DNA from: Rhizaria sp. SCN 62-66 | Lineage: Eukaryota | Assembly (NCBI GenBank): GCA_001724265.1 | Contig: MEDY01000444.1 | Coordinates: 1 to 41,704, forward strand | DNA: 41,704 bases | Direction of reading: 5' to 3' | Notes under the pieces: generated by a model | Told to the model about the DNA's origin: nothing | What the model saw: the letters and a program-made list of their open reading frames with translations, nothing else | The model's database searches: none | Program-made: the position numbers and the translations under genes | In this document: positions 1-41,234 of the stretch, piece after piece | How the letters are laid out: the number at the start of each line of letters is the position of its first letter | Position numbering within the stretch: the stretch's first letter is position 1

Positions 1-1633
1 GCTGGCGGCCGAGCTGGCCGCGGTCGCCGCGCGTGCCGGGGAGGCCGAGGCCGCACTGGCCGCCGCCCGGGCCGAGGCCGCGCGTGCGGGCCGCCGCGCT
101 GCCGCCGCCGAGGCCGCTGCGGCCGCCGCGGATACGCGCGCGGCGCAGGACGCCGAGGCGCGCGCGGGGGCCTGGGAGCGCGAGCGCGAAGCCCTGCTGG
201 TGCAGGTGCGCGCCGCCGCCAGGGATGCCGCGGCCGCCGAGGCTGAGGCCGCGCGCGCGCTGGCCACGGAGCGCGAGCGCGCGCGTGGCGCCGAGGAGCG
301 GGCGCGTGCGCAGGCCGAGGCCGCCGCGGCGGCCGCGGCGGCGCAGCAGGAGGAGCTGGCCTCGGTCGGGGAGCGCGTCCGCGCGCTCGTGGGCAAAAAG
401 GACGCAGTCATCGCGGCGCTTAAGGCAAAGGTGCGTTGTCAGGTTATAGGACAAGAGACAGCTGTGAGGGTATATGTATTTGAAAATAGGATATGCAAGT
501 AAAGTGGGATCAAGTGTTTATGAGATTTTGTTTAAATAACTTGGAGATGTGGGTTTTATGGTTTGATTTTATGAAGATATTTCATTTACTAATGAGTTTT
601 TGTTTGTTTTTGTTTTTTGTTTTTATGTCTCTCACATCACATCTCGCAGATATCCGAGTACGAGCTAGTCCTCGGCGACCTGTCCACGTCGATGGGCGGC
701 GCCACTGGACCAACTCCGGCTTCGACGTCGGCGGCGGCCGCCGCACTCGCAGCAAGCGCCCAGGTGGTTGGGAATAGTTCTTCCGGGAGTGCGCTTGGAG
801 GCGGCTTGGCTTCGCTGCAGGGCGGCTTAGCTTCTCCGCAGGGCGGTTTCACTTCCTTCAGTCCCCGCCGTGCCACGCCAATGCAGTCGCAGCACACGCA
901 ACTGTCAATCTCACAGCAAGCACAGACGCTGGCACATGCGCAGGCACAACCGAGCATCCAGAGCCAGAGCCAGAGCCAGAGCCAAAGGGGCAGAGTCGTT
1001 TTTGCGCCTGAGCCGGACTCGGACCCCGACACCGAGGCCGACAAAGCCGCGGTGACAGCATCGACATCGACAGTGACGAAGAACGCTCCAGAGTCTGCCA
1101 CTGAGGCTGAAGCCTAGTCTGCGCCGCTGCCGTCGCGTCTGGCCTTTAAGCCGCAGCCGCACCCGCACCCGCAGGCTCATCAGTCTGGCGGCAGTGGCAG
1201 TGGCAGTGGCAGTGGCAGTGGCAGTGGCATTGATGGCACCGACGGCAGTGACAGCAACGCTAGCCACGCTCACGGCAACGCCCAGGGCTTTGCGCGCGCC
1301 AGCGCCTGGGCCACGACGTTGCCCGCCGCCGCCCTCTCGCAGCCGCAGCCGCAGGCACCGGCCTCAAGCAGCAGTGGCGGCGGCCTCGGCGCCGGGGGCA
1401 TGAACCTGATGGGCTCGTTTGGGGCGCCCGACAGCGTCTACGGGCCCCCGGCCGCAGTGGACAGGAGCAGCGCGGCTGGCTCTGGTTCCTCTGGCGCTGC
1501 CACTGGCACTGGCGCCGCGGGTTCTGGTGCGGCTGCTGCCGAGACTGCGATTGAGGAGGAAGCTGGATACGACGACGCGTTCGACGCCGCTGGAGGCGAA
1601 GACGACGATTTTCAGGTCTATTCCGCGTTCTAA
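1..1633 (+). CDS. 3' part of a coiled-coil centrosomal protein, CEP131/AZI1-like. Exons <1-430 and 650-1633; in-frame TAG at 1115-1117; stop TAA at 1631-1633
   Basis: The frame reads ...QQEELASVGERVRALVGKKDAVIAALKAK|ISEYELVL across a phase-0 intron (aag|gtgcgt at 431; tcgcag|ata at 649/650), resembling the CEP131 C-terminal ELxxVxxRVKxxLxKKExxIxxL motif. After the TAG the same frame stays open for 171 sense codons, includes ORF 1319..1633, and ends at TAA where GC content drops. Confidence 0.6.
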
Positions 1634-2525
1634 GCACGATATGCGCGCTATTGTGTCATAAGGAGTCGCAATCGAGCGGCGGCACGTGGAACCGAGGTCC
1701 GTTACAATAACGGCGCGGAACAAACTAAGTCATTTTGAGCTAGATTTTCACGAGTTATCGGGAAATATAGACGTTTTTTACAAAGTTATACTTATCATAT
1801 TTCAGATTTATACATATGTTTGAAATTCAGATATTAGCCGATCGATAAAACTGAGTGAGCGTGATTTTGGCCGTGTGGCGACGTGCCCGCCCAAAAGCGG
1901 CTCCTTGTCAGCCGTCCACCGCAGTCACGAAATTAGACTTTCTGGCTTGAAGACGCACTTCCGAGGAGTATAATTCACAAATATTGTCAATATTTGGAGC
2001 GTAAATACTATGTATTTTCAATTTGGTCATTTGACGATTAACTAAAGCTACAGCGGTTGGACCGAAAGTCAACCACAAAGCACATGCTTTAACGAAGTCG
2101 TTCAAACTCTTTTTCGGGGAACTATATTCGATCTCGCGAAGCTTTCGTTGACATAAAAGTATGCCTATCCGGAGACTTGACACTGTTTGTCACTTATATT
2201 TAAGTGCTTGCAACTAGAAACCGTTTTTGGTGCCCTTGCCGAGCTCATTTTCATCTCCCCTCAAGTGGCCTTGGAGTCGGCGAATAAGCCCGTGCATTCG
2301 CCTTTCCCGTGGCGTGACCACGCAATAATGTTGGTTAAAATCACGACAATTTGCCTCAAAACATTCCTTTAATTTTTATTCTCGCAATAATTTCCCAAGT
2401 TTCTTTTCACAAGCGTCTCTACGGCGGCTCTCCCCCCAGCGCCCTACCCTCTCAGCCCTCTTCTGCCAGAGTCGCGCCTCCCGACAGCTCCCGCGCACCT
2501 CGCTGCGCCCGCCCGCGCACCCCGC

Positions 2526-5045
2526 ATGTTTTCGCGCTTTTTCAACCCCGGCTACGACGGCGGCGCCGGGCCACCGCGACCGCCGCGCTCCCCCCACCCC
2601 CCGCGCTCGCCGCGCGCCTTCTTCGACCCCTACTGCCCTGACTCGGCGATGCTCTTCTCGTCGTCGAGCGCCGCCGCAAGCCCCACGGTAAACTCAGCAA
2701 ACATAGCAAACACAACAAGCGCTCCTAAAACGGCGACGGCGATGAAGTTAGCGTCGGCGACGGAGCTGGCCGTCTCGGCCCACACGGCGACCCCTGTCGC
2801 GTCCACCATCGCGCCCGCAGCGCCCCTGCCTATGCCCCTGCCCCCGACAGCGCCTGCGACCGTGCCTGTGACTCTGCCAATGACCGCGACGGCGCCCGTC
2901 AAGCTCCCGGCGCTGCCCACGATCTCTGCGCTCTCTCTCAATACAAGCGCCCCCACCACCAGCAGCCCCACTACCAGCAGCACCGGCGTCAGCACCAGCG
3001 GCGGCGGCCAGGGAGGGTCCGTCGAGACGCGCACCGAGACGCGCGCGGAGGCCGAGGCGCTGGTCTCGGCCGCCGCAGCCGCCGCGCGCGCCCCTCGCCA
3101 GTTCGTGGACCCGGCCCTCATCGCGTCGATGTTGGCACAGCAGAAGGAGCTGCTGGCGCGCCTGGCGCAGCTCGAGGCGCTGCAGCAGCAGGCGCAGGCC
3201 CCGCCGCCGCCGCGAAACAAGAAGGCCGCGGCGGCTGCCGCGGCGGCGGCGGCGGGTCAGGCTCAGACACAGCGATCGCAGGCGCAGGCGCTGCAGTCGC
3301 AGGCAAAGCTGTCTCTGCCGTCTCTGGCGTCGCTGCCGTCGCTCTCGGACCCGTCGCCCGAGCCCCTGCAGTCGCCGACGGCCGCGGCGGCCGCCGCGTC
3401 GCTGTCGGACGCGGCCGCGGGCGGCGGGCTGCTGGGCGCGGCGCTGATGACGACGAAGCTGTCGACGGACCGGCAGGCGGCCGAGTTCGCCCGCTCGCTC
3501 CGGTCCGCAGCCGCGCGCGTCGCCGGCAGCCTCGCCCGCCCCGCGAAAGCGCCGTCGCTGCCACCGCAGGACCGCAACGCCGCGGCAGTGACGGGCACTG
3601 ACACGGGGGCCGCCCTCTCCGGGGCCGCCTTCTCCGGGGTCACCTTTTCCGGGGACGCGTCGCCCGGGGCTCCCTCACCCGGGGCCGGGGCCATCTCGCC
3701 GCTGGCCGGGACGGCGCGCGCACTGCGGCTGCGGCTGCTGACGAAGCGCGAGCGGGCGCTGGCCGCGCTGGGCCGCGGCGGCAACAGCAGCAGCGGCAAT
3801 GCGAGCGCAGTGACCGTTGGCAGCGACGGCGAGACTGCCGCTTCACAGTTGCAAGCACAACCACAGGCCCAGCCACAGGAGCCGCAGGCGCAGCCACTGC
3901 GCCGGCCCGAGCGGCTTATGCTGCGGCTGATGCCCTGGTTTGCCCCCAGCACGCACACTGGCACCAGCGGCGACGCTGCCAGCGGCGACGCCACCGCTGC
4001 TGCTAGTAGCAACAGCAACAGTAACAGCAACAGCAGCAGTGATGTGGGCGGCGCCAGCAGCGCAGCGACAGCGGCTGCGGTGGCCTCAGTGCCGGTAGCC
4101 TCAGTGCCGGTGGCCTCCGCGTTGAGCCTGACTTTGGACGGCAGCAGCAACGACAATGATGACGACGACGACGAAGACAACAACAAGAGCTTGGCGCTGG
4201 CCACCCTGGTCCAGGAGACCCGCCCGCATCGCTTCAACCGCAACAGCAACGGCGACGGCGCTGCGAGTGGGCTGGCCGCGACCGCTGCAGTTGCTGTGAG
4301 CGCTGCTATGGCCGGCGTGCCGGTGCCCGTGTCCGTCCTCCCTGCTGCCGCGACCACTCCAGCGACTGCGTCTGCAATTGCGTCTGCCACAGACTCGAAT
4401 ACTACCCCGCTGCTGCTGCTGCCGCAACCTCTGTCCCGGGCTACGAGCCACAGCAACAGCAACAGCAGCAACAACAGCAACAGCAACGGCAGCACGAGCG
4501 GCGGCGGCGACTCTGGGAGTTACTTGGGCCGCTTCCTGCGCCGTCACCGCCAGTGGGCCGCTCGCACGAGCATCAGCAGCAACAGCAGCATGAGTAGTGT
4601 CGGCGGCGTCGCACTGCCTGCAGACGCGGTCATGCGGGAGATTCAGCTTGCGCCCGCGCCCGTCGCCGCGGCCGCGGTCGTGGTCACCGTTTCTGCCGCC
4701 ACCGCTGCGCCCGAGGGCGGCGGTGCGAGGGCCGTGAGCCCGAGTATCGCCCACAGCAACAGCGGCGCTGGCAACGGCGATAGTGCGCTGTCTCGTGAGG
4801 CGATGCGGTCGCTGGTCTGGGGCGCTCTCGCCGCAAGGGCTCCTCCGCCCCTGCCCCCGCCCCCGCCGTCGCAGTTGCTGTCGCTGCCGCTGCCGCCGCC
4901 GCCAAAGGCCGCGTCCCAGCCGCTGCCGCGGTCGCAGGCCGCGGCCGCAGCGGCAGCGGCTGGTAGAAACTACGGCAGCGGCGGCGGTGGCGGCGGATGC
5001 GCGGCCGCGGGTGGGGCCGAGACAGGAGCTGGCCCGCGTTTGTAA
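2526..5045 (+). CDS. Hypothetical 839-aa Ala/Ser/Pro-rich protein with a short coiled coil (LAQQKELLARLAQLEALQQQ)
   Basis: Long ATG-TAA ORF that coincides with a GC-rich block and has the same low-complexity style as neighbouring genes. No domain recognised. Confidence 0.7.
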   Translation: MFSRFFNPGYDGGAGPPRPPRSPHPPRSPRAFFDPYCPDSAMLFSSSSAAASPTVNSANIANTTSAPKTATAMKLASATELAVSAHTATPVASTIAPAAPLPMPLPPTAPATVPVTLPMTATAPVKLPALPTISALSLNTSAPTTSSPTTSSTGVSTSGGGQGGSVETRTETRAEAEALVSAAAAAARAPRQFVDPALIASMLAQQKELLARLAQLEALQQQAQAPPPPRNKKAAAAAAAAAAGQAQTQRSQAQALQSQAKLSLPSLASLPSLSDPSPEPLQSPTAAAAAASLSDAAAGGGLLGAALMTTKLSTDRQAAEFARSLRSAAARVAGSLARPAKAPSLPPQDRNAAAVTGTDTGAALSGAAFSGVTFSGDASPGAPSPGAGAISPLAGTARALRLRLLTKRERALAALGRGGNSSSGNASAVTVGSDGETAASQLQAQPQAQPQEPQAQPLRRPERLMLRLMPWFAPSTHTGTSGDAASGDATAAASSNSNSNSNSSSDVGGASSAATAAAVASVPVASVPVASALSLTLDGSSNDNDDDDDEDNNKSLALATLVQETRPHRFNRNSNGDGAASGLAATAAVAVSAAMAGVPVPVSVLPAAATTPATASAIASATDSNTTPLLLLPQPLSRATSHSNSNSSNNSNSNGSTSGGGDSGSYLGRFLRRHRQWAARTSISSNSSMSSVGGVALPADAVMREIQLAPAPVAAAAVVVTVSAATAAPEGGGARAVSPSIAHSNSGAGNGDSALSREAMRSLVWGALAARAPPPLPPPPPSQLLSLPLPPPPKAASQPLPRSQAAAAAAAAGRNYGSGGGGGGCAAAGGAETGAGPRL

Positions 5046-5825
5046 GAGCGTTTGTCAGAGCACTGCATCACGCACACACGCACAAACACAGCACGAGCAA
5101 TACATGTGCTGTCTGGCATAAACGTCTCTATAGACGTGTATTTATAATGTAACACGCGAGTGTTGTTAGATTTCTATAAGATGCACAGCTGCAGCTAATG
5201 TAGATGCAGAGGTCGCGCGGTTATCGGTTATGGGGGAAAATACTGCTTATTTAGTTCAATAAATGATAAACCAAAACACCACATTACACACGCTTGTTTA
5301 AGAGCGCGACACAAGCATTCGTATTTTGTTTCGATTTCTGTCAGTTATTCGTTATTCCCACGGCATTTCTATTGCTGTGCAAATTCCACGGATTTATCTA
5401 AATTAAGATGTGCCCAAGCACGCACATGGGCATACACACCTATAATAATGATTACCACCACAATTATCACCAATCAGTGTTGATTTACAATGTTAGCAAC
5501 ACAAAGACTATCTTGAGTCGAGCTTTGGCTGTTGCACATGTTATCGACTCCATATCTATTACAATTTTATTTTGTTGTCTGAGTACTGTTACTTTTAGCG
5601 TTAACGCAGCTTTTAATCTAGTACAAGCCTTCGTAAAAGTGTCACATCTGTATGCGTCAATGAATAAATCATGATTATTGGAAAACGACTCAGCTCGTAG
5701 TCGTTATGGCCGTCAAATTAATACCTGGAGATAAAGCAGTCCAAAGAAGCTTTTGTCTGAGCCGACCTGATACCAGGCTAGCATTCAACACTCAAGAGAC
5801 ATGTCTCCAAGAGATTCAACATTGC

Positions 5826-8158
5826 TTAATCAAAGAGCTTAGGTTTGCTGCCACTCGACGTTTCCTTAGCGCCAACAGGCACGGCGCCGCGCAACAGGCT
5901 TACCGAGCACGTGCTCGTTAAAGACGATAAACCATGGTGTGTCGAGCGGACCCTAGTTAGTGTTATCAAAGGAGACGCAGCTGTTCCCATGTCATACGTT
6001 GCGGACTTGGCTTTCTTTAGGCGCGCAACACTAGGCGCTGTATATTCGCCGTAAACGATATCACTCTCGGGAAGCTGTAAAGATTTTTGGCACACAAGTA
6101 ATTATTTTCATAACTTTCGCGATAGTGATGCATATAAAACGTGACAAGTGGCGGTGTACCTGTTTTTGATTGACCCCTTGGCACAAAACACGTGTGCACC
6201 TCAACTCAAAACATCCTACGACGCACCTCCTTGCGAAAGTGTGCAGTGTTGCAAGGAAACTTTTCGTTATCAAGTCGAATTATGCCGAAACGGGTCGACA
6301 AGTCCTGCTCAGAATCTGAAAAGTGCAGCGATATTGCCACATCTTTGTTTTTGACACTGCTGCGGAGACTGAGTTGCATGAAAAGGCGCGCTTTGGCCTG
6401 CAATATAGCTAAGACAGCTGGAGATAGCGGACCCTCAGTACGACTGGAGATGAGTTCAACGAAATAGGGATACTGACGTACTGAGACCCGCTTAGGGTGT
6501 CCGCTCTTCTCTAAAATGCAGGCGATGTGCCCGTCAAGCTCACTTCTCCAGTGCCAGCGCACTTTTGGCTGCACAAAGCCATGAAGCTCTGCAATAGTTT
6601 GCAGGCGCAGCTGCTATGTTTTGGCTGTGTCAGGTGCAATCACATCCATGCCTGCAAGCAGTGCGCGGAGCTGCGTGAGTTCACGCAGTGCGTCGCCCTC
6701 TTGCGCGCAGTCCTCGTAGCGCAGCAGGTCCAGCACCTGCAGCCCGTGGCAGTCGATGAACTCGGCTACAAACGAGTTCCGTGGCTCAACACCGCGTTCG
6801 CGCAATGAGCAGGCGGGTGAGGTGCTATCAGCACTAATCATGACTCGCAAGACGCGTAGAATACGTGTAATGCCAGCCTGTGCCAAGCCAGCATCTTCTG
6901 CTTCCTGATTGCATGCGTACAACACAACCAGCTTCAGAAATAAGCAACAAAGTCTCACAACACCGCTCACCCGAAGCTTGTGCGCTGCAGAAATAATGTT
7001 AAAAGCTGTGCTCAAAATGTTGTCGCAAAGCGTCATAAAGCTGCTAAGCAACAGCATATACTCCGTGTCATGATCATGATGAGGAGTCATCGCGCAGTAA
7101 ATGGTGTCGACAGTATACTTGAAAAACCGTGAATTCAAGATACGCTGGGCGAATTTGGGAAATTGGACTGCTAAGCGCGCAAGAATACGAAGGAGTGACG
7201 CCGAATCCTAAGATCTAATCTATTCCCATTGACAAGGAGCAATTTGTGTGTGCATTTGGGCAAGCCGATGATCAGTAAAGCCCAGCGCCAGCGCGGTGTC
7301 GTCGAATAAGTCAAGAGCGCGAACAAGCAAGCGCACTATGTCTGCGTAGGTAATCTCTGTCAAAGGCTCGAACTCATCACTGGCAGCAAAATCTGCTATG
7401 TCACCGCGGCGCCGCGCGTTATCTGCGCTGTCGTCTCCGGGGCACGAGAATATAAAGAAAAGAGCATCGTAAGCGATCATTTTGATATCGCGACTGTACG
7501 TGTCAAACGTTTCGTAAGACCTAACGACGTTCCGCAGGAGAGGAGCAAAGGTAAGCACGTCTGAATACGGAAGGCACGATGTTTCAGTAGTCTTGTTACT
7601 AGAGACAAGCGCACGGAGAGTTTTGGTGAGAGCTTTGTGGTAAATAACGCCCTGGTAGGTCGCAAAATGCGTGGGAGCACAAGTTCGTAGCTCCATATCA
7701 CGCATGTGCGCCAGCAAGTGCGTCACAGCATTAAGACGGGCGCGCATGCCAAGGGGAGACTCAATGACAATGTAGTGTACAACCTTGAGAATCTTAGAGG
7801 CGATGCAATAATGGTAGTTCTGGGGAAGATGAAGAAGAGCTTTCATCAGCATCTCGACAACATTGTTTTCAGCGAGGAGATCACTGCCTTTTGCGCAGTC
7901 AGTCACAGCTAGAAAAAAATGAAGCATGTTCTCAAAGTGTGTTGTTGCAGCGCCTGTTCTGTACGCGTCGCTGGCTTGCTCGAGCGACTGCAGAAGAAGC
8001 ATGACAACGCCGCTCTCAACGATGACTTCGATATCACCACCCTCAAACAGCTCGTCTACCGTATCATTAAGCTCCGTCAATGCAGTTTCATCTGTTACTA
8101 AAGCTGTAATCCGGCTCACAGCAACATGGAAACGATACACAGCTTTGTTGTCCTTCAT
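5826..8158 (-). CDS. Divergent armadillo-repeat (importin-alpha-like) protein with in-frame TAGs at 7220-7222, 7208-7210 and 6614-6616. Probable intron 6075-6226; 5' end uncertain
   Basis: ORFs 7220..8209, 6614..7138 and 6206..6574 share one frame and are separated only by TAG. A donor gag|gtgcgt (6226) and acceptor ttacag|ctt (6075) join ORF 5826..6095 in phase 0, ending in TAA. The protein is colinear with the 35047..36480 protein (ERGVEPRNSFVAEFIDCHG vs AEGAQPRNVFLAAFFAAGG). Confidence 0.65.
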
Positions 8159-8915
8159 TAGACAGCGTTTTTCTGAGTCCAGATGCGTAAACAAGGCGCT
8201 GTTACACAAGCTTGAAGTATAAATCTGAGTTTTCTCTTGAATAAGTGATGTGCAACCAAAATAGGCTAGTAAAATACGGAGGTGCCGCTAGTATCAATTT
8301 GCATATGGTTGAATAAGTACCAGCCAGAAAATGAGATGGTGAGAGTGGACGGACTTCAAGTTGCGAAGGCTGCTCAATTGTTGTAGATGTAGCAAGGAAA
8401 TGTCGAGCAGAATAGGCGAAATCGCAAGAGCTTATTGGGACGCGTGCAGCTAAAAGAACGTTCTGTCGCGTCTCTTCATACACATTTGTAAGCGTGGTCA
8501 AGCTGAGTCGCGTACGCCCACAGCGCTCTCTTGCCAACAGAGGAGTCTTGAGACCAGGATCACAAGGTCTCAAATAGAAGTGTAAAAGCGTTTGCAGCGC
8601 TGCAGAAAAAAGGCGGTAAGGTTGACGTTACAATGCAAGTGGCAAGTGTTGATTTTAGACTCGCTTTGACTCCCATCACTGATCGAAGTTAAGCCGCACG
8701 AGAGAGGCCGGTTGAACTTGAACTGAAATGCTGCGAGCGCTATAAAAACACGGATTAATGAAAGCCAATCTATTGCTTCAACTGAGTTTAGTCATAAATA
8801 ACAAAGGCACTTTGTTGATTTTTTGTATCGCTTTTGTGTATTTCTTGAAGTCAATGTTCTCATGTTTATATCCTCGCTTTTGACGACTCCTTCCTCCAGA
8901 TCCTTCCCCCTCTAG

Positions 8916-11900
8916 ATGAGCACTGTCCCCCCATCCTCTGGACCGAGGGTATGTATGAAACAAAAATAATGTTCTGAAATAAGAAATTTAGTATATTTTT
9001 GTACTTGAAATTCAGTATTAATGTTCTTATGCGTCTTTTATTTCTCCTTGCTTTGTCGTTCTCAGATCCGGGACAGCACCCGCACCGACAACGGCACTGC
9101 GGTGCTGCTGTCGCGTACCGGGCTGGGCGGGACTGCCAATGAGCCCGCGCTAGTCTCCACTACAACCAAAATCACTGGATCGCACCCGCTGCCGCCCACG
9201 TCGGGGCTGGGCCGCGGCGGCGACGACCTCAAGTTCGATGACGCAGACGGCGACTACAGCGCCGCCCTGGCCCCTGTGCGTCTGCCGGCCGTGCCCAAGA
9301 CGCTCCCCGCGGTCCGCACCGCGCCGGTGCCTTCGGCGGCGGCTGTGCTGGAACACGCAGAGCGCCCCACAGCGCGCGACCGCTCGCACTCGCCCGCGCC
9401 GCTGAGCGTCACGGCCCCGGGCTCGCTAGACCGCGCGCCGGACCGCGGGACCTTCACGGCCACGATGCCGCGCGGCGTGTTCTCGCCCGCGCCCGTGGCA
9501 ATGCAGCCCTCGGCGGCGCCCGGCGCGCTGCAGCCGCCGTCGCTGGAGCGCGCGGCGGCCCGCGCGACGGAGCTGCTGTCGCCGCAGGAGCTGGAGCAGC
9601 GCGCGCAGCTGCGTTTCCAGCGCGACGTAGCGGAGCGCGCGCGCGAGGCCGCTGCCGAGGGCCGCCGCAGCGCCGTGCTGCCCGTGGGCGCCTCTTCGCG
9701 CGGCGTCTCGGACCCCTTCGCGGCGGCAGGCGGCGGCGCCGTCACGCGATCTTGGGGTGGCGACCGCGCGATGGTGCCGGCAGACTCGGCCTACTCTGGC
9801 GGACCAAAGGAGAGCGTTGCGCGCTCCTGGGCGCACCATAGTGAGGACGCGGGGGCTGCGGCGCCGAGCGGACGGCCCGGCACAATCGTAAGCACGAGCA
9901 CTGCAACTGTGATGACCAAGGGCGCCAAGCCAGTGCCGGTTTCGGCGACGGTGTCCACGGTCACCGAGCCCTTCCGGCCCCAGAGCGAGGACGCGTACAT
10001 CTCGAAGAACGCGCCGTCGCTCGGCGGCACTGCCGCGCTCGACGGCGGCTTCCAGCGCCTCAGCCAGCAGCATGACAAGCACGACAAGTACGACGCCGAC
10101 AGGAGCAAGAGCTCTGGCGGACTGATGAGCTGGTTGTGGGGCGGAGGCGGCGGCGGCGGCGCGCGCGCGGGCCGCGAGAAGAGCGACGCCGACTACAGCG
10201 CCGACGGCATCGGCACTAGCACGCGGCTGGCTGTCGCGCCCGCCAGCGCGCGCGCCACGTCCTCCGCCGCCGCCGCAGCGGCCGCGGCTGCGGCGGCCGA
10301 GGCCAGTCTGGCTGAGCACGAGCGTTGGCGTCAGCAGCAGGAGCTCGGCCGGCTTGAGCAGCACCAGTACTATCAGCAGCAGCAACAGCTCCAGCACCAG
10401 CAGCAACAGCAACATCAACAGCAACAGATGCAGCAGCAGCAACAGTGGCAGCAGGAGCAGCACAAACAGTTGCGGCGCGAACTGCAGCAGCGCCAGAGCC
10501 ACCGCGCCGAGCAAGAGCAACGCGCGCGCACCGCGAGCCTCCCTGTGCCACCGGGCAGCTCCGAGGCTGAGATTGCGAGCGACCAGCGAGAGAACTCGTG
10601 GATCTGGCAGTATCGCGAGCAGGCGGGCTACGGCCACCACTCCGGCGACGCTGTCGCTGACGGCGACCGCGAGCGTGAGCGCGAGCGTGAGAGCGAGCGC
10701 GAGCGCGAGCCGAGCGCGCTGCAGCGGGCGGTGCAGACGCTGAGCGGCAAGCACCGCGAGCAGAAGCGCGAGCGCGCCGGCTGGATGGGCTACTTAAACA
10801 CGCAGGCGGACTACGAAGACAGCGACACACTGCAGCGGCGCACGCACACTGAACAGCAGCAGCAACAAGAGCAACCGCGTCAGCAGCAACAGGAGCAGCA
10901 GTACCGTGACAACAAGGCTGCCGCCGAGGCCGGCGCGCGTTACGAGCAGGGGACGCAGCCGTTTTACTTCAAACAGCAAGAACGCGAGCTGCTGCGCCAA
11001 GAGCAAATGCAGCAGCAGCAACAGCAGCAGCAGCAGCAGCAGTCGTCGTTGCAGCGGACGCGGCAACAGCAGCACGGCTCGAGTTTCGACGGCTACGGGA
11101 GCTACTTTGGCTGGCGCGGCCCGGGCCCCGCAAACGAGGGCGCGGATCCACCGTACGGCCTCTCCGAGTCGCAGCTGGGCACGCTGACGCCGGAGCAGCT
11201 GCATGACATGGCGCATGGCAGCCACGAGGCGCGCCCGCGCTGGGTGAAGCTGGCGACCGGACACGGGCACGCAGACGGGCATGTCGGCGAGGTCCACGTC
11301 GATGTGCAGAACCTCTTTCCGCCCGGCTCGACGCGCGGACGCGCGCTGCCGCTGACGCTGCTGGACCGGCTGGCTGAGGCGTCGCCCGCGGAGCCCTGGT
11401 TTGACGACGGCACGGGGCTCTTCGCGGACACCACGTCAGTGTTGGAGCGGCTGACGGCGGCCCGCACGCGCGCGGCCGAGGTGTCCGCCGAGGGTGAGGT
11501 GCAACTCGAGCAGAGCCAGAACCGCGGGCTCGCGCCCAATGAGGTCGGGCCTGCCCGCATGCGCCGCTCGGAGCCCGCGGCCGCGCGGCAGATGGCGCTG
11601 GCGCAGTCGCAGGAAGACCTGGACCAGGCCGTGCGCGCGGTGCGGCGGGCGGCGCTGGCGACTTACGCGGGCGGCGCCCCGGGGCTCGAGACGCTGGGGC
11701 TGCTGGAGAAGCCCGTGCGCTCGATCAAGGTGCGCGACGTGGCGGCCGTGCTCGCGGAGCTGCCGCAGGGCGCGGTGCCCGAGCTGGCCGCGCTGGCCGC
11801 GATGCTGAGGGAGGACGAGCTGCCCGCGCCCGACGTCGCCGTCCGCGCGGCGGCCGCGGCGGGGCGCGCGTTCGGCACCCGGCACGCGGGCGCGCAGGGC

Positions 11901-14900
11901 GGCAGCGGCATCGGCCACGCTGAGGACGGCGCAGACACCATGAGCAACTACATCGCCGCAAACGTGCTTAAGCAAGGCGCGCGCGCCAGCGACAGCGCAA
12001 GTGCCGGCGAATACAAGAGCGACACGCGTGACACTCGTGACACGAGTAGCATGCGTGACAGGAGCAGCAGCCTTGGCGAGACGGTCGCAGGCGCGGCGCG
12101 CAGCGTCAGCAGCGCGGTGGGCAACGTCGGCAACGCAGTAGGCAACGCAACGGACATGGCGCGGCGCGAGCTCGAGTTGCGCTGGGACCAGGACCGCGCG
12201 ACGTGGGAGCAGTTTCAGCGCGAGCGCGAGCGCCAGCGCCTCAGCGCGCAGCGGCCTGACTTCACCGAGGACCAGACGCTCGACTTGCGGGACCGTGAGC
12301 GTCGTGATCGCGATGGCTCAGTGCGCAGTCAAGACCAGACACGGAGCCAGGGCGCGCTGCAGCTGTGGGAGCAAGGCGAACAGCAGTGGGTCGACGGCGC
12401 GCCCGTGCCTTTCACACGGCCGCCACCCAGCAGCAGCAGCAGCGCTGCGCAGAGCTCGCACCGCGACTCGGGAGATCCCAGTCTGAGCCACCGCCACCCG
12501 CACGGGCTGTTGGAGCGCATCAGCGACACGGTGAGTGGCGCCGCGGGCGCCATCAAGGATACCGCCGCCGGCGCCGCGGCCGTGTTGCTCGGCACCGAGC
12601 CCGTCGCAAGCAAGGTCGACGCCCACTCCAAGGCCGGCGAGTCCAAGGCTGGCGAGGTTGTAGGCGACGCGGCGCGCGCGGTCAAGAGCGCGGCCAAGGA
12701 CGCCGCGGGCGCCGTCAAGGATACCGTCAAGGACGCAGTCAGCGGCAGCCCGCTCGCCGAGGTCGCGGACGATGTCAAGAGCGCCGCCAAGTCGGTTGCG
12801 CGCGACGCCAAGAGCGCTGTATCCGACGCCGTCGGCGGTGCGGCGCAGACCGTAAAGCACGCAGCTCAGGACGCCGCGGGCGCAGTCAAGAGCGCGGTCA
12901 CCGACGCCGCCGATAGTGGCGGAGAGTCTCTGAGTGAGATGGCCAGCGATGCGATCGACAGCGCCAAAGCCACTGCCAAGAGCTTTGGAAAGAGCGTCGG
13001 CAAGGCTATCGGCCTCGGCGGCGGCAGCAACACGGCGGCGGACGCAGTGGGCTCTGCCGTTGACGCCGCTAATGGCGCCGCTAAGGGCGTTGCTAGGGAC
13101 GCGTCGCGCGCGGTTAAGGGCGCCGCCGCGGCCGTAACAGACGCAGTGGGCAACGCAGTGAGCGATAATGAGGACGCGCTGGCCGATGCGCGTGATGCCG
13201 TGTCCGACGTGGCGGCCGCGGTGACCGACGCTGCGGGCACGGCAACGCGCTCGCTCTCTGCCGCGGCACGCGGGGCCGCCGAGGCGCTAGCGCCCGCGCA
13301 TAAGGACGAGGGCTACTTGGCGGGGCTCTGGCGTAGCGCGCGCGAGAAGACCGAGGACGCGGTGGCCGACGTAGCCGCGGGCTCCGCCGGCCGCCGCGCC
13401 GCGCGCGAGCTGCAGGAGCAGGCGCGCGACGTGGCTACAGCGCTTAAGACCGCTGTCGGCGAGGCCGCGCAGTCGCCCGAGGGTCAGGCGGCGGCGCGCG
13501 AGGTGGCTGCAGCCGCCAAGGAGGTTGCGGGGGCTGTGCGCGAAGCCGCGTCGGCGTTCTCGCAGTCTGCGGGCGCCGCCGCGGGGGCTGCCGCGCCCGC
13601 GCTGGCCGCCGCGGCCGGGGAGGTTGCCCGCGGCGTCACCGCCATGACTGCGGCCGCAAAGGACGCCGCTAAGGACGTCGCCGCGGATGCCGCGCGCGAG
13701 GGTGCGGGCGCGGTTGCCGCTGCGGCTCGCGAGGGCGCGGCGGCGGTCAAGGAGGGCGCGGCGGCCGTGGGGGCTGGGGTGGCGCGCGCGGCCGACCGGG
13801 CGACCGCAGCCGCGGGCGACGCGGCGCGTGCGGTGCCCAGTGACGCGCGTATTAGGGACAGCGTGGAGGAGGCCAAGCGCAGCATCGGGCACCGCGTGCG
13901 TGAGTGGCTCTCGTTCAAGCGGCCCAAGGACGCCGGCGACAAAGGCAGGGACAGCGTCATCATGCGCGACAAGGGCACCGCCGTGACGGGCGCGATCGCA
14001 GACGCCGGCGCCGCCGCCAAGGAGGCTCTGGCCGACGCGGGCAAGAGCGTCAAGAGCGTGGCCCGCGACGTAGCAGACACTGTCACCCGTAGCGGCGGCG
14101 GCGGCGACGGCAGTCGCGCCGGTGAGAGGATTTCCGAGTCCGTCAAGGACACAGTCAAGGACGCCGCCGGCGCCGCTAAGGAGGCTGCCAAGGACGTCGC
14201 GGGCGCCGCCAAGGACGCCGTCAAAGACACGGCCCGCGGGCTTGCGCGCGACGCCAAGGGCGCCATGGCCGACGCCAAAGCCGCTGTGGCAGACTCAGCC
14301 GCCGCGGTGGCCGACCGGGCCAAGGGCGCCGTGGTCAGCGCGGCTGATACAGTTGCGAGGGACGTTAAGCAGGCCGCCGGCGCAGTCGCGGGCGAGGCCA
14401 AGGGCGCGGTGCAGAGCGCGGCGCGCTCGGTGGCCGACAGCATCGACACGCACAGCCACTTCCACAACCAGCTGCCGCAGCATCAACACGGCCAGCAGCC
14501 GCCGCAGCAGCAGCAGCGCCGCATCAGCGGCAACATGGGCGTGCGCGAGGACTACAGCGATGAGAAGGCGTACCTCGACGAGTACCGACACAACTTCCGG
14601 GGCGACTCCTACTTCCCACCCGAGGGCCCCGGCGCCGCGCCCGCGGGGGCACACAAGGTTGGGCTCTGGGAGCGTGTGCGACACCCCTTCGTCGGGGGCG
14701 GACACGCCGCCAAGCCCGCGCACGATACCAGCGCCACTGCAGCGGCGGCGGCAGCGGGCGCGGCGGCCGCGGCTGCCTCGTACAACGCCGACACGGCCAC
14801 TATGCGCGCGCAACAGCAACAGCAACAGTTACAGCAACAGCAGCAGCGGTTCGGCAGCGGTCACTACGGCTTCAACGCGTCTGACCAGGCGGCCGAGCGC

Positions 14901-22488: not shown

Positions 22489-22526
22489 TGCACTGAACAG
22501 GTCTAACCATTGATGGCCGCTAACGC

Positions 22527-26360: not shown

Positions 26361-26392
<32 letters not shown>

Positions 26393-26536: not shown

Positions 26537-27201
26537 TCTGTTGTATAGAAATAATACACGGAGATTATTACGTGTGTGTGAGTGAACAAGAACGTGACAA
26601 CAAAGGAGGAGAGTTTCACATGAGTGGAGCGGTCCATCTAGGATTTTGAAGTGGATTTTTGACATCATAAACAATGTGCAGTAGATGACACGTTTTAATA
26701 TAGAAATCATTTCACAATTAAAAACTAAATTAACATCGTTTCACTCAGATTGACGATCATTTGACACCACACATTTCTTTCAATTTGGCCTCGCCCCCCC
26801 ATCAAGCCACCACCGCCCTCGTCATAAACGACCTCTCCAGATCCTGATTTGCATCTCTGCGTCGCACTAACGCAGCGGTGGGCATTAAACATGTGCAGCA
26901 GTATATTATTCATGTTTCATCTAGGCTAACATTGGCATGTTATCTCTCCGGAGCATTTATTCAAGTGTTGTATTCCTACACCAAACTTTGCTCACTCAAG
27001 TGTCCTTGCTCAAAGTCACAATTGATTCAGCTTACAGAAGCCCCAAACACGAATACACAAAAAACACGGTACACAAAAGCAAAATAATCCATACTATTGA
27101 CTAAATATCTTTCATACGCGCAACAACAACACCAGCAACAAAGACTCTTCTTCATAGTAGCTAATTGCAAGTGTACACGCAACATCCTGCTGCCTTGATG
27201 C

Positions 27202-30200
27202 TCAGTACTGCTCCTGAACGAGCACGGAGAGCTGCGCGTTGATGAGCGCCTTGTTGCTGTTGTAGTCGGCGCGCAGGCGCACAAAGTCCATAAGCACCGC
27301 GGGCGGCAGCGCGCCCAGGCGCGTGCCCTCGGTGGCGAGCGCGCGCAGACTGGTGGCCGGGATGATAAAAAGGTCGCAGAGCGCGTTGAGGTCGCTGAAG
27401 AGTGCGTCGAGGCGCGGCAGCCGCATCTGCCCCACGGCGGCGGCGAGCAGCGTGACGTCGCGTCGCAGCAGGGGCGCGCCGAGCGTGGCGACGCCGCCGC
27501 AGTGCCGCCGCAGGTGTTCCACGGTCACGGCGTAGAGCTGCGAGCCGAAGACGGTGAGGAAAGCGTCGAGGTTCGCGCCCTGGAGCGCGAAGCACGCGGA
27601 CCCGTTGACGGCGGCCACGTGCGCCGCGACGGTCTCCCAGGCCAGGTCCGCCTCGGCCTCCATCAGCGTCGCCGTCTGGTCCGCGCGCGGGCGGTAGGCG
27701 GCCGACTTCTGCGTCGTGAGCGTGCGCCGGATGTAGGCCAGCGACGCGCCCAGCATGGCCTCCAGCCCAGCCAGCAGCAGCGCCTCGCCTTCGCGGCGCG
27801 TCGCCGTGAGCCGCGCCTCCAGGTTCGAGCGCAGCGACGGCTCGGCCGCCACGCGCGGCATCACGCAGCGCTGGCGGAAGCGCGCCTCCTGCGCCGCCAT
27901 GAGTCCGCACTGTCGCGCGATGATGAAGAAAAAGTGGTCCGGGGCCTGAAAAAAGAGAAGAGGAAAGGCGCGAAAGAGATTATATACGCAGCATTAAGTC
28001 AGAATTGGTGTTAGAAAGTATTCTCAACTAAAAGGCAACGGATTTTTAAAATAATTATGCGAGTTCGACGAGATGATCGACCAAGGAGTGTTTTTCACTT
28101 GCGTTTGAATAAACATTCTCGCTTTGCATTTTGCGTTTTGCGTACCTGTTTGGGGTCCTTGGGCGGCGCCGAGACGAGCGCGACGGCCTCGCGCAGCAGC
28201 GGCGCCATGAACCGCTCGTGCACGAACGAGCTCACGGTTACGGCCAGCTTGGTCGTGGCGTGCATGGCCGCGTCGGCGTCGGGGGCCAGCCCGTCTGAGC
28301 GGCGCACCGCCGCGGCGGCCTGGCGCCACAGCCGGTCGAGCGGCTCGGGGGCCAGCTGCGTGCACAGCCACGCGCGGTGCGTGCCGGGCTCCATCGCCGT
28401 CCGCCGCACGCGCCCAAACACGTCCTTGGTCTCGGGGCACTCGGCGTCGCGCGCCATCGACACGGCCTGCGCAGAGAGCAGCGCAAAAAGAGGGAGAAGG
28501 CAAAAATGAGTTGGTTTTTGACCAGATCAAAGTGAATTCGCAAATAAAGATCTCAAATTAAATCAAAATTTTGAATATACATCCAGATTAAATACGACAA
28601 GTTGATGTTAATAACAGCGCGCATAGATCCATGCATAGTCCGTACCTCGAGCACGTCGAGCGCCATGGCTTCGAGCACGTCGACCTCGCGGTCCAGCCAC
28701 GAGCGCGCGTGGGAGGCGAACACCGTCGCCACCAGCTCGCGCACCAGCCCCATGTCCACCTCGGCCTCCTCTCTGGAGGAGCCAGCGCCAGCGCCAGCGC
28801 CGGTACCGGCCGTGAGTGCACCGGTGGCCGCGGCACCGCCCTTAGCGCCAGCGCCGTTGCCGTTGTCGCTGCCGCCCTTGGCGCCGGCGCGGCCCCCCTT
28901 ACCGTCGTCATCGTCGTCATCATCGTCGTCGTCGCCGGCAGCGGCGCCGCGGCGGCGGTTGCGCGCGCGCGTGCGCGTGCGCTCGAACACGACGCTTGCG
29001 CCGCCGGCGACGACGCTGCCGCGGAAGCTGGCCAGCTGCTGCTGCTGCTCTTTCTCGGTGACGTAGCCAGAGCTGCCGCCGGCCCCGCCGCCGCCGCGCC
29101 GCTGCTGCCGCTGCTGCTGCAGTTGCTGCGCCTGCTGCAGCTGCTGTAGCGGCGCGATGCACTTGACCAGCTCGACCACGAGCGGCAGGACCAGCGCGTA
29201 CGCCGCGCCCAGCAGGCGCAGCACCTTGAGGTCCTCGGCGGCGGCGGCGCGGCGAGTCTGTCGCACGAGCAGCTGCGCCTGCGCCAGCGCGGCAGCGTGC
29301 TGCTCCTTGCTCTGGCCAGGTCCGCGACCCGCGCTCACGACCTCGCCCGCGGCAGTGGCGGCCATTGCGGCCGACGCGGCGGCGGCGCGGCCCGCGAAGC
29401 GGCCGATGGCGCCGTCGACGAACACCTGCACGCGCCCCAGCGCAGTCGAGGCCACCGTTTGCACGATCGACGCGGGCTCCGCGAAGACCTGCGGCGCCAG
29501 CGCGGCCTGCGCGCGCACAATCGCCAACACAGCCTCCGTGAGCCCGCGCAAAGCTTCCGTCAGCGCGCGCGGCGTGGGCAGCTGCGTCGTGCGGCGCGCG
29601 GGCGGAGCAGCGGGCGCGGCATCCGCAGCGGCAGCGGCGGCGGCAGCGGCGGCGGCATCGGGGTTGCCGTTGCCCCCAGCAGCCGTGGCGGCGGCAGCAG
29701 CGGCGGCGGCGGCGGCAGCAGCGGCGGCGGCCTTGCTGGCCTTGGAGGCCTTGGCGTTGGCGCGCTTCTCGGGCACCGCGACGAGCTTGTGGATGGCCGA
29801 TGAGGAGACGAACGCGTCGAGCGGGGCGACGGTGTCAAAGACGTAGCGCTGAAAGGGGCTGCCGGGGAAGCCCGCGAGCGAGAGCGCGCACTGGCGCGCG
29901 TCAGCGATGTTGCCGTTACGCAGCGCCGTCGCGAAGTGCTCGCGGATGGCCAGCTCCAACGCCGTTGAGATCGTCCCCAGCAGCGCCGCCGCGCGAGAGA
30001 AAGGCGGCGGACCCGTGCTCGCCACCGCCGCAGTCGCGCCCGTATTCGCGGTCGCGTTGTTCGATGTACCTGTGCCGGTGTGACTGCTGTTGCTGTTGCC
30101 GTTGCTGTGCTGCTGGTGCGCGGGGGCCAACTCGTCGAGCATTGCGCGCAGCGTGTGGACAAGCCGCGCCGCGCCGTGCACTTTGCGCGGATCCTGCGAC

Positions 30201-32569: not shown

Positions 32570-32602
<33 letters not shown>

Positions 32603-35046: not shown

Positions 35047-36480
35047 TCACGTGCTTATGTCGCCAACAATATCGATCACACACTTGTTTAGACTTGCCAC
35101 GTCAGCGTTCTTCGATTTAGTCCTCGCAAGAGCGTCGCGGCCGCCCGCCGCAAAGAACGCCGCCAGAAACACGTTGCGCGGCTGTGCGCCCTCGGCCTGC
35201 ACCGCTGGGTCGGCGCCCGTATCGCCGCACTGGACCATGAGTTGCACCGCCTTACAGATCCTGGCGGGCGGCATGTCAATCGCGCCCGCGGCAATGGCGA
35301 GGATAAGGGCGTAGTAGCGGAGCACGCCGGCGTCGAGCAGCATCTGCGCCCGGGCCAGCCGGGCCTGCGGGGTCAGGGCCCTGGCCAGAAGCTCAGTCGT
35401 GATCGCGGACAGCGGTGTCGTCACTTGATAGCCGATGAAGTCGTTGCTGATGGAGCCTCGCGTCATCTCGGCCAGGCGCATAATCGCCGTCTGCAGCACG
35501 TTTGACTCAAGCACACGCGCCTCCATTTCGGGGCCCTTAGCCACGAGATGCGAGAGCATGTCGACCAGGTCGAAGAGCGCGTAGATCACCATGTATTCCA
35601 GCGACGCTGCGAGCCGCTGCAGTCTCGCCAGCACGTCCGGCGTGAACACGAGCGCGGCCTTGTCACCACGGTACTGCGCCATGCGGCGGCATAGACGTTG
35701 TGCAGGCATGTGCGTCGCGGACTTGACATGAAGGTGCGAGACAACGCAGCGAATGACGCTGTTTTCGCCGCCGCTGACGAGGTCTGCGAAGCTGCCATCA
35801 TCACGATCGAAGTTGAAGATCAGCGTTAGGGAGTTTGTCGCATTGATGAGCGCGTCCCGGAGATCGGGAAAGCCTTGGAAGTGCCGCAGCGCAAATGCTA
35901 GATGCGGCACCATGGGCGCCACGACGCAGTAGGTCAGCTGTGACGTCAACCGAGTCGTAAGTCCGTCGTGCATGACCGCCGAGAGCGTTGTGATCACCTT
36001 GGGGTCCACAGACGCAAACCTCTGGTACACAGCGCCCATGTAGGCGTATAAGTGCGCAAGGATGCCTCGCTGGACGATTGCGTCGATTGGCGCGCGCTCA
36101 TTTTCGACGATGCTGTTGAGAGCCTTGAGCGCGGCAATCACAACGGCGTCGGGCGTGTCAAGGCAAACCATGCTGCAGAGCTTCTCAGCAACGCCGTGCT
36201 CAAGCAGCACGCCAGCGGACAGCGAGGCAAGATCTTCAATCGCTTTCACGGCTTCCCTGTGACGCTTTTCTTTGTCCGCGTCTGCTGTGAGATCGAATGA
36301 ACGCAAGAGCGTGTCAATCACGCCGTGGTCGAGACATGCCTCAGTGAGCGCCTCAGTCTTTTCTGTATCTCGAGTATATGACATCCACCGCAGCCTTTGA
36401 ACTCCGCCCAGCGACTCTGAAAGCTCCATCAATTCCGCAACAGCCCCATGAAATGATTCGTAGTCGAGCTGGTCGGACAT
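35047..36480 (-). CDS. Intronless divergent armadillo-repeat protein, importin-alpha-like but lacking the IBB domain, 477 aa
   Basis: ARM-like helices (LLEHGVAEKLCSMV, ALKALNSIV..., AIVQRGILAHL, LLDAGVLRYY). The C-terminus CGD...RNVFLAAFFAAGGRDALA...N..VA....VIDIV resembles the atypical last ARM of importin-alpha. Stop is TGA. Confidence 0.7.
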   Translation of the reverse strand: MSDQLDYESFHGAVAELMELSESLGGVQRLRWMSYTRDTEKTEALTEACLDHGVIDTLLRSFDLTADADKEKRHREAVKAIEDLASLSAGVLLEHGVAEKLCSMVCLDTPDAVVIAALKALNSIVENERAPIDAIVQRGILAHLYAYMGAVYQRFASVDPKVITTLSAVMHDGLTTRLTSQLTYCVVAPMVPHLAFALRHFQGFPDLRDALINATNSLTLIFNFDRDDGSFADLVSGGENSVIRCVVSHLHVKSATHMPAQRLCRRMAQYRGDKAALVFTPDVLARLQRLAASLEYMVIYALFDLVDMLSHLVAKGPEMEARVLESNVLQTAIMRLAEMTRGSISNDFIGYQVTTPLSAITTELLARALTPQARLARAQMLLDAGVLRYYALILAIAAGAIDMPPARICKAVQLMVQCGDTGADPAVQAEGAQPRNVFLAAFFAAGGRDALARTKSKNADVASLNKCVIDIVGDIST

Positions 36481-37058
36481 CGCTCAGCTGAACAGAACAC
36501 GGATCTATGACAATTGTGAAGTGCGACATGAGTCCAAGTCATAATGCAGATAGATGCGGTTGAGAAATAAAACACACATATGCAATCACTAATACAACGA
36601 CATATCGCGAATTCCACACGGAGAGTTACGTATAGTCTCATTTCTGTGTTGAATTTCGAGTGTCAAGTGGGGAGGGCGAGGCCCCGTTTCTTTGAGCCTC
36701 GTTTGCGTTAAATTCACATTTTTGAAAAGTTCCACACTAAAATAATGTAAAAAACATGCCATACTTAAACATACTTGAACGCCACTTTGTCTGACGATCC
36801 AATACATCGTGTAATATCATCCCTTAATCATGCATGCAAAACAGTTCTTTTTGAACTCGTGGTGACAGTAATTTTTTGACTTGAAGTGAATATTTTTTTC
36901 ACTTTGTTGCACGTAATTCTTCTTATTCAAAATAAAAGGCAGAAGTAATAAGAGGAAATACAATCATGTTATGTGTATTCCATGTCATCTATTCGTCTTG
37001 AGCTACTCGTAAAGCTATATAAGCTCGCACTTTCATCGCCACTTCGTACTGATGTCGC

Positions 37059-39827: not shown

Positions 39828-40377
39828 TGCAGAGGCGCGTGGGGGCCGGCTGGTAGGAGCGGGCAGAAGCTGGTGAACACAGACAGAGCAAGGCGTTACC
39901 TTGACGAGTTTGACTGGCGAAGGAGGCTGCGGAGAGAAATGAGAAGATATGCGCGAGACAGCGACATGTTAAAGAGAAATCGAAAAGGATTCAAGTAATA
40001 TGTCAACTTTTAAACCGTTATACACTACTCTTAATGCGATATGCAGTCTTAATGTGTCTCTGAGCACATCCTTTGTTAGACTTGAGAGGGCGCGCGAGGT
40101 GTGGTGGACGAGAGCCCAGAGCGAAAGAGGAAAAGTAGCATAGGAGTCCATAAAGAGCTCTCTAGAATATATAATTTTACGATTAAATATATTTCCATGC
40201 AAAATGTATTTGGCCTTAACCATGCATGCGCTGACGGTCACACTCCCTATATTCAGCATGTAATGCGTCACTCCTAAGCTCATCCCTCTCGAACCCTTCC
40301 GCTTCACACATTCCTCACCACAGCACAGCCTTACACCAACTCTACACACACGAGGCCACTCCACGCAGTCAGCCCCG

Positions 40378-41234
40378 ATGCCCCCGAAGTGCGGCGTCTG
40401 CAGCGAGCAGGAGTCCCGCTACAAGTGCACCCGCTGCCGCACCCTCCGCTAGTATGTACCCCGCAGCCCAACCGCTCTCTATCCCACTTTGCACTCATTA
40501 ATTCCACGATATAAAGCAATATTAACACGACTCCACAACATTACTTTTATACGCGCTAACCAATCATTATTTCAACTTTTTGTATTCTTTTGCGCCAATA
40601 TAGCTGCTCCAAGGAGTGCTTCGCCGTTCACTGCGAAACCTGCCTCCCCCCCTCTGCCCCCTCCGTCTCCACTGACGCTGCCTCTGACGTTGACGCTACA
40701 CCTGCTGCGACCGCGACTGCGACTGCCGCCGCTGCCGCCGCGCCCCCGCCCGAGGCCGCCGCGGCCGCCGCCGTGGCCGCTGTGCCCGCGGTGCTGCGCG
40801 GCTGCGCGCGCGTGGCGGCCCCCGCCGCGTCCGCTGCGGCCGCCGCCTCGCTGGGCCAGCTGCCAGAGGAAAACCTGGCCCGCATGCGGCACCACGGCGG
40901 GCTGCGCGCCGCGCTTAGGGACTCGGGGCTGCAGCACATCATCACGGCGATTATCAGCCCCGCGCCTCCTGCAGCAACCATGGGGCACAACAGCAACAGC
41001 AACAACCGCAACAACAATCGCTACAATGGCTATAACAACAGCAGCAAAAGCGAGAGTGTGGAGCAGCAGCAGCGGCGCCTGCTGGCCGAGCTGTGCCAGA
41101 CGGAACCGCGCTTCTCGGACTTCCTCGGGGAGATGCTCCGAGTCGTCGACGACAGCGCCGTCGCGCAGGCTGCGCGGGACCGGCGGGACCGCGATGAAGC
41201 CGTCAGCGCGCTGCTCCGGGGCGAGCGACCGTGA
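40378..41234 (+). CDS. ZNHIT3: Zinc finger HIT domain protein (ZNHIT3/HIT1-like box C/D snoRNP assembly factor), 234 aa. Exons 40378-40451 and 40604-41234
   Basis: Spliced MPPKCGVCSEQESRYKCTRCRTLRYCSKECFAVHCETC is a zf-HIT (intron gtatgt...gctaac...tatag). The C-terminal LRAALRDSGLQHII...EPRFSDFLGEMLRVV matches the ZNHIT3 C-domain. Stop is TGA. Confidence 0.85.

Follow-up and report, generated by a model that had tools for sequence, protein, structure and literature searches.

Reassignments of UAG alone are rare; they separate two codons, UAA and UAG, that normally change meaning together, and each case tests ideas about the co-evolution of eRF1 and suppressor tRNAs. Two examples are Rhizaria sp. 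exLh, in which UAG encodes Leu, and Iotanema spirale, in which it encodes Gln (Panek et al. 2017, PMC5304391). According to that paper, UAG never acts as a bona fide terminator in either organism (0/71 and 0/119 transcripts), and it is frequent as a sense codon in conserved housekeeping genes (384 in 71 genes and 204 in 126 genes, respectively). In phyllopharyngean ciliates, known from metagenome-derived genomes, UAG encodes Leu or Gln while UAA is still a stop, the use of UAG is widespread, and suppressor tRNA-CUA genes were identified (McGowan et al. 2024, PMC11687900). Glutamate at UAG is found in Oligohymenophorea sp. PL0344, where UAA is Lys and termination is left to UGA alone (McGowan et al. 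2023, PMC10553269), and in the peritrich ciliates and Blastocrithidia, where both UAA and UAG (UAR) encode Glu (PMC11687900; PMC12153298). Here, we describe a 41.7-kb stretch of DNA, contig MEDY01000444.1 (positions 1 to 41,704, deposited as Rhizaria sp. SCN 62-66), hereafter called the window, in which seven in-frame TAG codons fall within three genes. We consider it probable that UAG is decoded in this organism as an amino acid, most likely Glu, and that UAA and UGA terminate.

In common with exLh and Iotanema as they are described in that source, the window is non-ciliate, appears to use UAG alone as a sense codon with genes ending in UAA or UGA, and was noticed because of in-frame UAGs in sequence of environmental or contaminant origin. 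It differs from them in having only seven TAGs, all of them in three weakly biased genes, with at least 12 further genes free of TAG. The phyllopharyngeans share with it the reassignment of UAG alone and the discovery in metagenome-derived sequence. Unlike them, the window is GC-rich, has introns of 117–219 nt and uses TGA and TAA stops about equally; nothing in it points to a ciliate, and the likely residue is neither Leu nor Gln. PL0344 resembles it in reading UAG as glutamic acid, uncoupled from UAA, whereas TAA in the window terminates six of the 15 genes and has no in-frame occurrence in the clean open reading frames (ORFs). In the peritrichs and Blastocrithidia, a UAR-box stop is likewise read as glutamate, but UAA acts as a terminator in the window; unlike in trypanosomatids, moreover, the window has introns and genes on both strands. 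In the literature searched, to the extent of its available portions, UAG as Glu with both UAA and UGA kept as stops was not found described outside ciliates.

The seven in-frame TAGs had been reported in a first-pass annotation made from the sequence alone, and all are present at the sites given there (1115, 21343, 21562 and 21784 on the plus strand; 7220, 7208 and 6614 on the minus strand). They were compared with independent sequence from four of 13 listed sequencing runs over positions 2501–22500, a stretch that leaves TAG 1115 outside. A DNA-type contig from run X2 (4972–9259) had 0 differences from the window and spans TAGs 6614, 7208 and 7220, and a DNA-type contig from run X4 (6872–10169), also with 0 differences, spans 7208 and 7220. 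TAG 21343 is spanned by another X2 contig (20961–21541), again with 0 differences, and a Joint Genome Institute (JGI) metagenome contig, L001, is identical to the window over 6901–10308. For TAGs 21562 and 21784, both X2 and X4 have depth in the bin concerned and no difference is listed, but no listed piece spans either codon. Where they were checked, the TAG alleles are identical in runs from different studies; the TAGs at 6614, 7208, 7220 and 21343 are real codons and not assembly errors. Two other origins were considered and rejected. The TAGs do not lie in introns: the GC content around them is 52–69%, compared with 27–48% in introns, homology is continuous, and of the two contigs of the polyA RNA run X5 that lie on the gene at 19623–22488 (19890–20228 and 20651–21015), the latter is colinear with the genome. 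Nor are they the product of mutation resembling repeat-induced point mutation (RIP), with TpA/ApT at 0.78 and (CpA+TpG)/(ApC+GpT) at 1.36.

Gene 1, at the left end of the window, comprises the following features:
2–430, plus strand: exon 1, an open frame that is open at the 5' end of the window, with GT 431 after a complete codon.
431–649, plus strand: predicted intron of 219 nt, GT..AG, 27–48% GC, whose splicing would preserve the frame.
650–1633, plus strand: exon 2, ending with TAA 1631–1633 and containing an in-frame TAG.
1115–1117, plus strand: the TAG, within a low-complexity run GAA-GCT-GAA-GCC-TAG (E-A-E-A-*).

The product is Ala/Glu-rich and coiled-coil-like. It had no match in Pfam and could be assigned to no family, which leaves the earlier name “CEP131-like” without support. 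Coding potential was assessed with a codon model trained on 6681 codons from the window's ten other ORFs. Behind the TAG, positions 1118–1630 scored +41.6, while the remaining five frames gave values between −10 and −70. Even the 95 codons directly behind the TAG, before the first ATG, scored +20.7, a value reached by 0.03% of 2885 off-frame or antisense windows and corresponding to the 27th percentile of true frames. The GC content behind the TAG was 0.72, versus 0.36–0.55 behind 12 accepted stops, and dropped only after TAA 1633. Since both the codon score and the GC content continue behind TAG 1115, coding runs through this codon, or did until very recently.

The second gene had been named “ARM”, a name that found no support either: Pfam and a word-indexed search both gave no match. 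An exhaustive HMMER search returned 62 proteins, three of which are fragments from the window itself and 59 of which are homologues with ~24–40% identity. The gene (5781–8158, minus strand; we keep the label ARM-family as a handle) and a second gene at 35047–36483 on the same strand belong to an unnamed eukaryotic family comprising these 59 homologues and lacking a Pfam domain. The conserved C-terminal domain of the family carries the motifs F-P-C-N-A-A-H-F, H-T-C-F-V-P and R-G-A-V-P-V-G-R-V. The homologues were aligned in two sets, one of 21 and one of all 59, and six of the 59 were used in tblastn searches. The features of the two genes are:
6203–8158, minus strand: region A, from ATG 8158 to TGA 6203; its 650 codons include three TAGs and are otherwise undisturbed.
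7220–7222, minus strand: TAG, residue 356 of protein P0001; homologue column variable (S 13, D 6, P 5; n = 37).
7208–7210, minus strand: TAG, residue 360; homologue column E 7, A 5, D 4, R 4, S 4 (n = 40).
6614–6616, minus strand: TAG, residue 558; homologue column E 17, D 11, A 6 (n = 44).
5781–6202, minus strand: region B, ~140 codons, decayed remnant of the C-terminal domain with at least three frameshifts and TAA 5826–5828.
35047–36483, minus strand: distant ARM-family paralogue, 478 codons, intact, no TAG, ending in TGA (23% identity over 332 residues, E = 2e-8).

The column at TAG 7208 depends on the alignment, having an L/I majority in the smaller set of 21 homologues, and is unreliable. 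In the tblastn searches, each of the six homologues gave one high-scoring segment pair in one frame, from ~8143 to ~6113, across all three TAGs. The homologues also align across TGA 6203–6205, at a conserved Gly column. Beyond this TGA, homology continues in another frame (6080–5781), across TAA 5826–5828, and a third frame (5952–5875) encodes the conserved stretch D-T-P-W-F-I-V-F. At least three frameshifts are found between 6134 and ~5900. Because the homologues continue across both TGA 6203 and TAA 5826, the earlier placement of the gene end at TAA 5826 was wrong; the frame ends at TGA 6203. All disruptions in regions A and B are unchanged in the X2 contig.

The remnant in region B brings in an alternative that we regard as unlikely, if well short of negligible, in which the code is standard and the three TAG-bearing genes are dead or dying. 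Gene 1 would then have suffered a recent nonsense mutation, and in the ARM-family copy the loss of the C-terminal domain, long ago, would have preceded the death of the gene. In-frame TAA or TGA codons as frequent as TAG had been named in the first-pass annotation as a sign of such decay, and in the 3' part of the ARM-family gene a TGA, a TAA and at least three frameshifts do occur. However, these are the only in-frame TGA and TAA codons, and they lie at or behind the truncation point, among the frameshifts; there are none in the clean frames. Where decay is evident, in region B, frameshifts outnumber stops (three frameshifts to one or two stops in ~140 codons). By contrast, the three TAG-bearing frames together have ~2,000 codons with seven TAGs and no frameshift, TAA or TGA, apart from an extra T at 19989 that is specific to the window. 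The TAG-only pattern is thus unlike ordinary decay in this genome, since region B shows frameshifts and a TAA and region A shows neither. Region A is either a truncated gene that is still read across its TAGs, or one that died very recently by three nonsense hits without an indel.

The remaining three TAGs are in a zinc-ribbon nuclease gene with the following features:
19623–22488, plus strand: zinc-ribbon gene, six DUF4379 repeats and a Vsr/DUF559-like end; ends in TAA.
19989, plus strand: extra T, a frameshift in the N-terminal part that is missing from X5, X4, X2 and protein P0011.
21343–21345, plus strand: TAG in repeat 3, H-x-F column of the zinc ribbon.
21562–21564, plus strand: TAG in repeat 4, H-x-F column of the zinc ribbon.
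21784–21786, plus strand: TAG in repeat 5, H-x-F column of the zinc ribbon.

If the extra T (a mistake in the assembly or else a rare allele) is ignored, the gene has ~954 codons and no stop besides the three TAGs. DUF4379 (PF14311) matched in six stretches, with E = 4.9e-40 and a score of 136 bits where the cut-off is 24.5. The C-terminal match to PF04480 (DUF559) was below the cut-off (16.9 bits against 20.6, E = 0.0057), but this domain is carried by many of the homologues, of which there are 250 at E ≤ 0.001. A conserved nuclease stretch, D-F...E-L-D-G-x-Q-H, is present downstream of all three TAGs. In the protein databases, P0011 is the product that stops at the first TAG, and P0185 is a C-terminal fragment. 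Among 120 near-length and 17 shorter matches, no paralogue ends at the TAG column other than these fragments from the window itself.

All three TAGs occupy the same column, which in the sister repeats is encoded by GAG (repeats 1 and 2) or AGG (repeat 6). The repeats are only 57–71% identical in DNA and 45–60% in protein, by which recent conversion of whole repeats could be rejected. Within 20776–22104, these otherwise diverged repeats share identical runs of up to 23 nt (r2–r3 and r2–r5). When the repeats were placed in a tree together with those of seven other proteins, they tended to cluster by protein, with rough support from few columns, and the TAG repeats form no exclusive clade, since r3 groups with (r1, r5). 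The identical runs and the clustering by protein point to concerted evolution through short-tract conversion between repeats. In two comparisons, r3–r4 (16 nt) and r4–r5 (10 nt), the longest identical run contains the TAG. The likeliest reading of the shared column is therefore a single TAG patch that spread from repeat to repeat, in a gene that may be live or dead. If the genes are dying, this would be a decaying selfish gene in which one GAG-to-TAG change was copied to two further repeats in this way.

The first-pass annotation had listed 14 gene ends, all of them TAA or TGA, and these codons were found at the positions given. With the ends recounted, there are 15, of which six are TAA, nine are TGA and none is TAG:
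TAA gene ends: 1633, 5045, 22488, 24297, 25286, 37059.
TGA gene ends: 6203, 15575, 16128, 17688, 18910, 27202, 34480, 35047, 41234.

The coding-like frames in the window that do end in TAG are all antisense or off-frame to better-scoring genes. In GC-rich eukaryotes, TAG ends about a quarter of genes; taking that fraction as an assumption, we calculate a chance of ~0.013 for finding 0 of 15. UAG was thus never found as a genuine terminator (0/15), in what is a small sample. This argues against dying genes under a standard code and would be expected equally of a codon that terminates poorly.

To estimate the residue inserted at UAG, the zinc-ribbon column was combined with the TAG columns of the ARM family. 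In 467 repeats of 119 zinc-ribbon homologues, the H-x-F column has E 145, S 78, D 63, T 56, Q 14, L 5 and W 0. The resulting log-odds were D 5.7, E 5.0, S 2.5, T 0.1, Q −1.0, L −11 and W −20, so that Leu, the residue of exLh, is strongly disfavoured and Gln, that of Iotanema, mildly so. The informative TAG columns are acidic, and both Trp and Leu are disfavoured. While an acidic residue gives the best fit overall, UAG is probably read as Glu, since GAG is one step from TAG, GAG is the codon in sister repeats, and Glu would complete the E-A-E-A-E run in gene 1. The acidic columns also argue against decay, because GAG accounts, in an unweighted count, for only 229 of the 1100 codons in the window that are one step from TAG (about a fifth), and for fewer if transitions dominate; the usual source by transition would be CAG (368).

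The same columns bear on RNA editing, which might repair the TAGs either by A-to-I change to UGG (Trp) or by U-to-C change to CAG (Gln). Restorative A-to-I editing of UAG occurs in some filamentous fungi, and clean frames interrupted by TAG only, and never by TAA, are what such editing would leave. Trp, however, is absent from the TAG columns (0/467, 0/44, 0/40 and 0/37), which excludes A-to-I editing to Trp, and Gln at −1.0 compares poorly with about +5 for Asp and Glu. In the RNA runs, no base difference is listed at the TAGs, coverage at those sites not being shown. We therefore find editing scarcely credible.

The case for UAG as a sense codon, with UAA and UGA as stops, has to be set against several observations that weigh the other way. 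According to codon usage in the window, 1618 codons are one step from a stop, 1100 from TAG, 287 from TAA and 231 from TGA. The TAG neighbours are CAG 368, GAG 229, TCG 150, AAG 133, TAC 98, TGG 57, TTG 40 and TAT 25, and ~68% of possible nonsense mutations here would yield TAG. Since about two thirds of random nonsense mutations give TAG, the fact that only TAG interrupts genes is weak evidence when taken alone, and dying genes would be expected to fill with TAG, because among the codons a single change away from a stop, CAG, GAG, AAG and TCG are the most abundant. The distribution of TAG is also uneven. Of the 92 Glu-or-TAG codons in the three TAG-bearing genes, seven are TAG, whereas there is none among the 266 Glu codons of the ten other ORFs, and none of these ORFs extends upstream across a TAG. 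The third-position GC content (GC3) is lowest in the same three genes (0.52, 0.66 and 0.70, versus 0.73–0.86). A neutral Glu codon that had long been fixed should be spread more evenly, and relaxed selection would also yield a pattern of TAGs at low GC3. Uneven use fits either a rare, mildly harmful codon held under weak selection or three genes under relaxed selection.

Other observations on the same side concern the individual genes and the contig. The ORFs on which the codon model was trained come from the same window as gene 1. The ARM-family gene has demonstrably lost its C-terminal domain, with the TGA, TAA and frameshifts described above, and the window's own version of the zinc-ribbon gene has a frameshift, at T 19989, in addition to TAGs inside conversion tracts. 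No RNA contig listed for 2501–22500 crosses a TAG, these being contigs only and not reads; contigs would in any case be no proof of translation. The depth of polyA RNA from run X5 over the ARM-family gene is almost nil, a weak hint of a dying gene that we did not use as evidence. Finally, the window contains no tRNA gene (0), no Rfam match (0), no eRF1 gene and no conserved housekeeping gene, so that none of the latter is among the TAG-bearing genes. A single contig of this kind cannot prove that UAG has been reassigned.

Nevertheless, dying genes would require three disabled genes among ~16 in a compact contig, and TAG alleles that are identical across runs from different studies. In addition, the seven nonsense changes would have to accumulate without any frameshift, and those that are informative would have to fall at acidic, GAG-type columns. 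UAG as a sense codon, with UAA and UGA as terminators, remains the best explanation of what is seen in the window, given the absence of TAG among 15 gene ends, the clean frame of 650 codons in region A, the coding sequence behind TAG 1115 and the acidic columns. The grounds for it differ from those originally put forward and are narrower.

The rarity of TAG and its confinement to genes of low codon bias would also be accounted for if UAG were a leaky stop, read by near-cognate tRNAs or a low-level suppressor in a few dispensable, weakly expressed genes, that is, by ambiguous decoding. No RNA structure that might serve as a local recoding signal was found behind the TAGs (z from −0.56 to +1.74 in six folds), as would be expected if UAG were leaky in general, and a poor terminator would rarely end genes. 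However, three serial readthroughs in one gene, as in the ARM-family and zinc-ribbon genes, would leave little full-length protein unless the reading were efficient, and we give leakiness, which in these data would look the same as full reassignment, little credence. A further alternative is that the TAG-bearing genes were recently acquired from a donor, either an organism or a virus, in which TAG means Glu, and that they are mistranslated in their present host. The TAG genes do have a lower GC content than their neighbours, and, judging by the names of the homologues, giant viruses commonly have members of the zinc-ribbon family. On the other hand, gene 1 has an intron of the host type and a GC content of 0.6–0.8, and there is an intact, GC-rich paralogue of the ARM-family gene in the window. 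The known donors of Glu type read TAA as Glu as well (PMC11687900), but the clean frames have no in-frame TAA. Acquisition from such a donor is thus highly improbable.

If UAG is indeed a sense codon in this organism, it would be an inefficient terminator that is translated, most probably as glutamate, presumably by a tRNA with the anticodon CUA and with accompanying changes in eRF1, while UAA and UGA would stay terminators. UAG would remain rare, tolerated only in genes of weak codon bias. The rarity of UAG and its restriction to such genes suggest a young or inefficient reassignment. The host itself appears to be an uncultured eukaryote that lives in wastewater and bioreactor communities and whose DNA is GC-rich and contains introns. 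Some part of 19000–28999 was present in 11 of the 13 listed rows of bioreactor, wastewater or activated-sludge metagenome runs, and at least half of its words were found in four of these rows. Scans of genome contigs and viral contigs yielded no further sequence of the organism. The nearest named homologues of the zinc-ribbon protein are from two ochrophyte algae and pacmanviruses, and do not place it; a search with Sec10 gave no indication of its affinities either.

The window as a whole is eukaryotic, with genes on both strands and an unusually sharp contrast between exons of 60–88% GC and AT-rich introns and spacers of 27–50% GC. Matches in Pfam include Sec10, WD40, EF-hand and two PLAC8 genes, in addition to the DUF4379 zinc-ribbon protein. 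Two introns were spliced in RNA run X6:
8948–9064, plus strand: intron of 117 nt, GT..AG, joint 8947>9065.
16594–16753, minus strand: intron of 160 nt, GT..AG, joint 16593>16754.

Run X6 also differs from the window at 16 positions in a low-complexity, Ala/Gln-rich ORF of 2188 codons (9009–15575, plus strand). Eleven of these differences are at third codon positions and ten are synonymous, so that purifying selection on this ORF is visible; within the ARM-family gene, there are only two differences. Run X6 represents a slightly different strain, and a second strain therefore exists. The two PLAC8 genes, at 23287–24297 (plus strand) and 25286–26740 (minus strand), are convergent and Gln-rich, and their matches are weak (30 and 28.8 bits, under the Pfam cut-off of 34.4). 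Upstream of the WD40 gene, beyond TAA 39969, lies an AT-rich open frame of 149 codons (39972–40418, minus strand), which is long for chance. TAA 39969 was considered as an in-frame sense TAA and rejected, the frame behind it having the look of a random AT-rich leader.

In practice, gene callers cut genes of this kind short, as with P0011, which stops at the first TAG. Should the three genes turn out to be dying instead, they would serve as a warning that decay against a background of GC-rich codon usage can by itself produce mostly TAG stops. We suggest tentatively, and with somewhat less than even confidence, that this is a non-ciliate eukaryote that reads UAG as Glu while keeping both UAA and UGA as stops, perhaps at an early stage and in weakly expressed or dispensable genes. 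If so, a GC-rich, non-ciliate organism with UAG as glutamate in a few genes would provide a snapshot of early or ambiguous codon capture.

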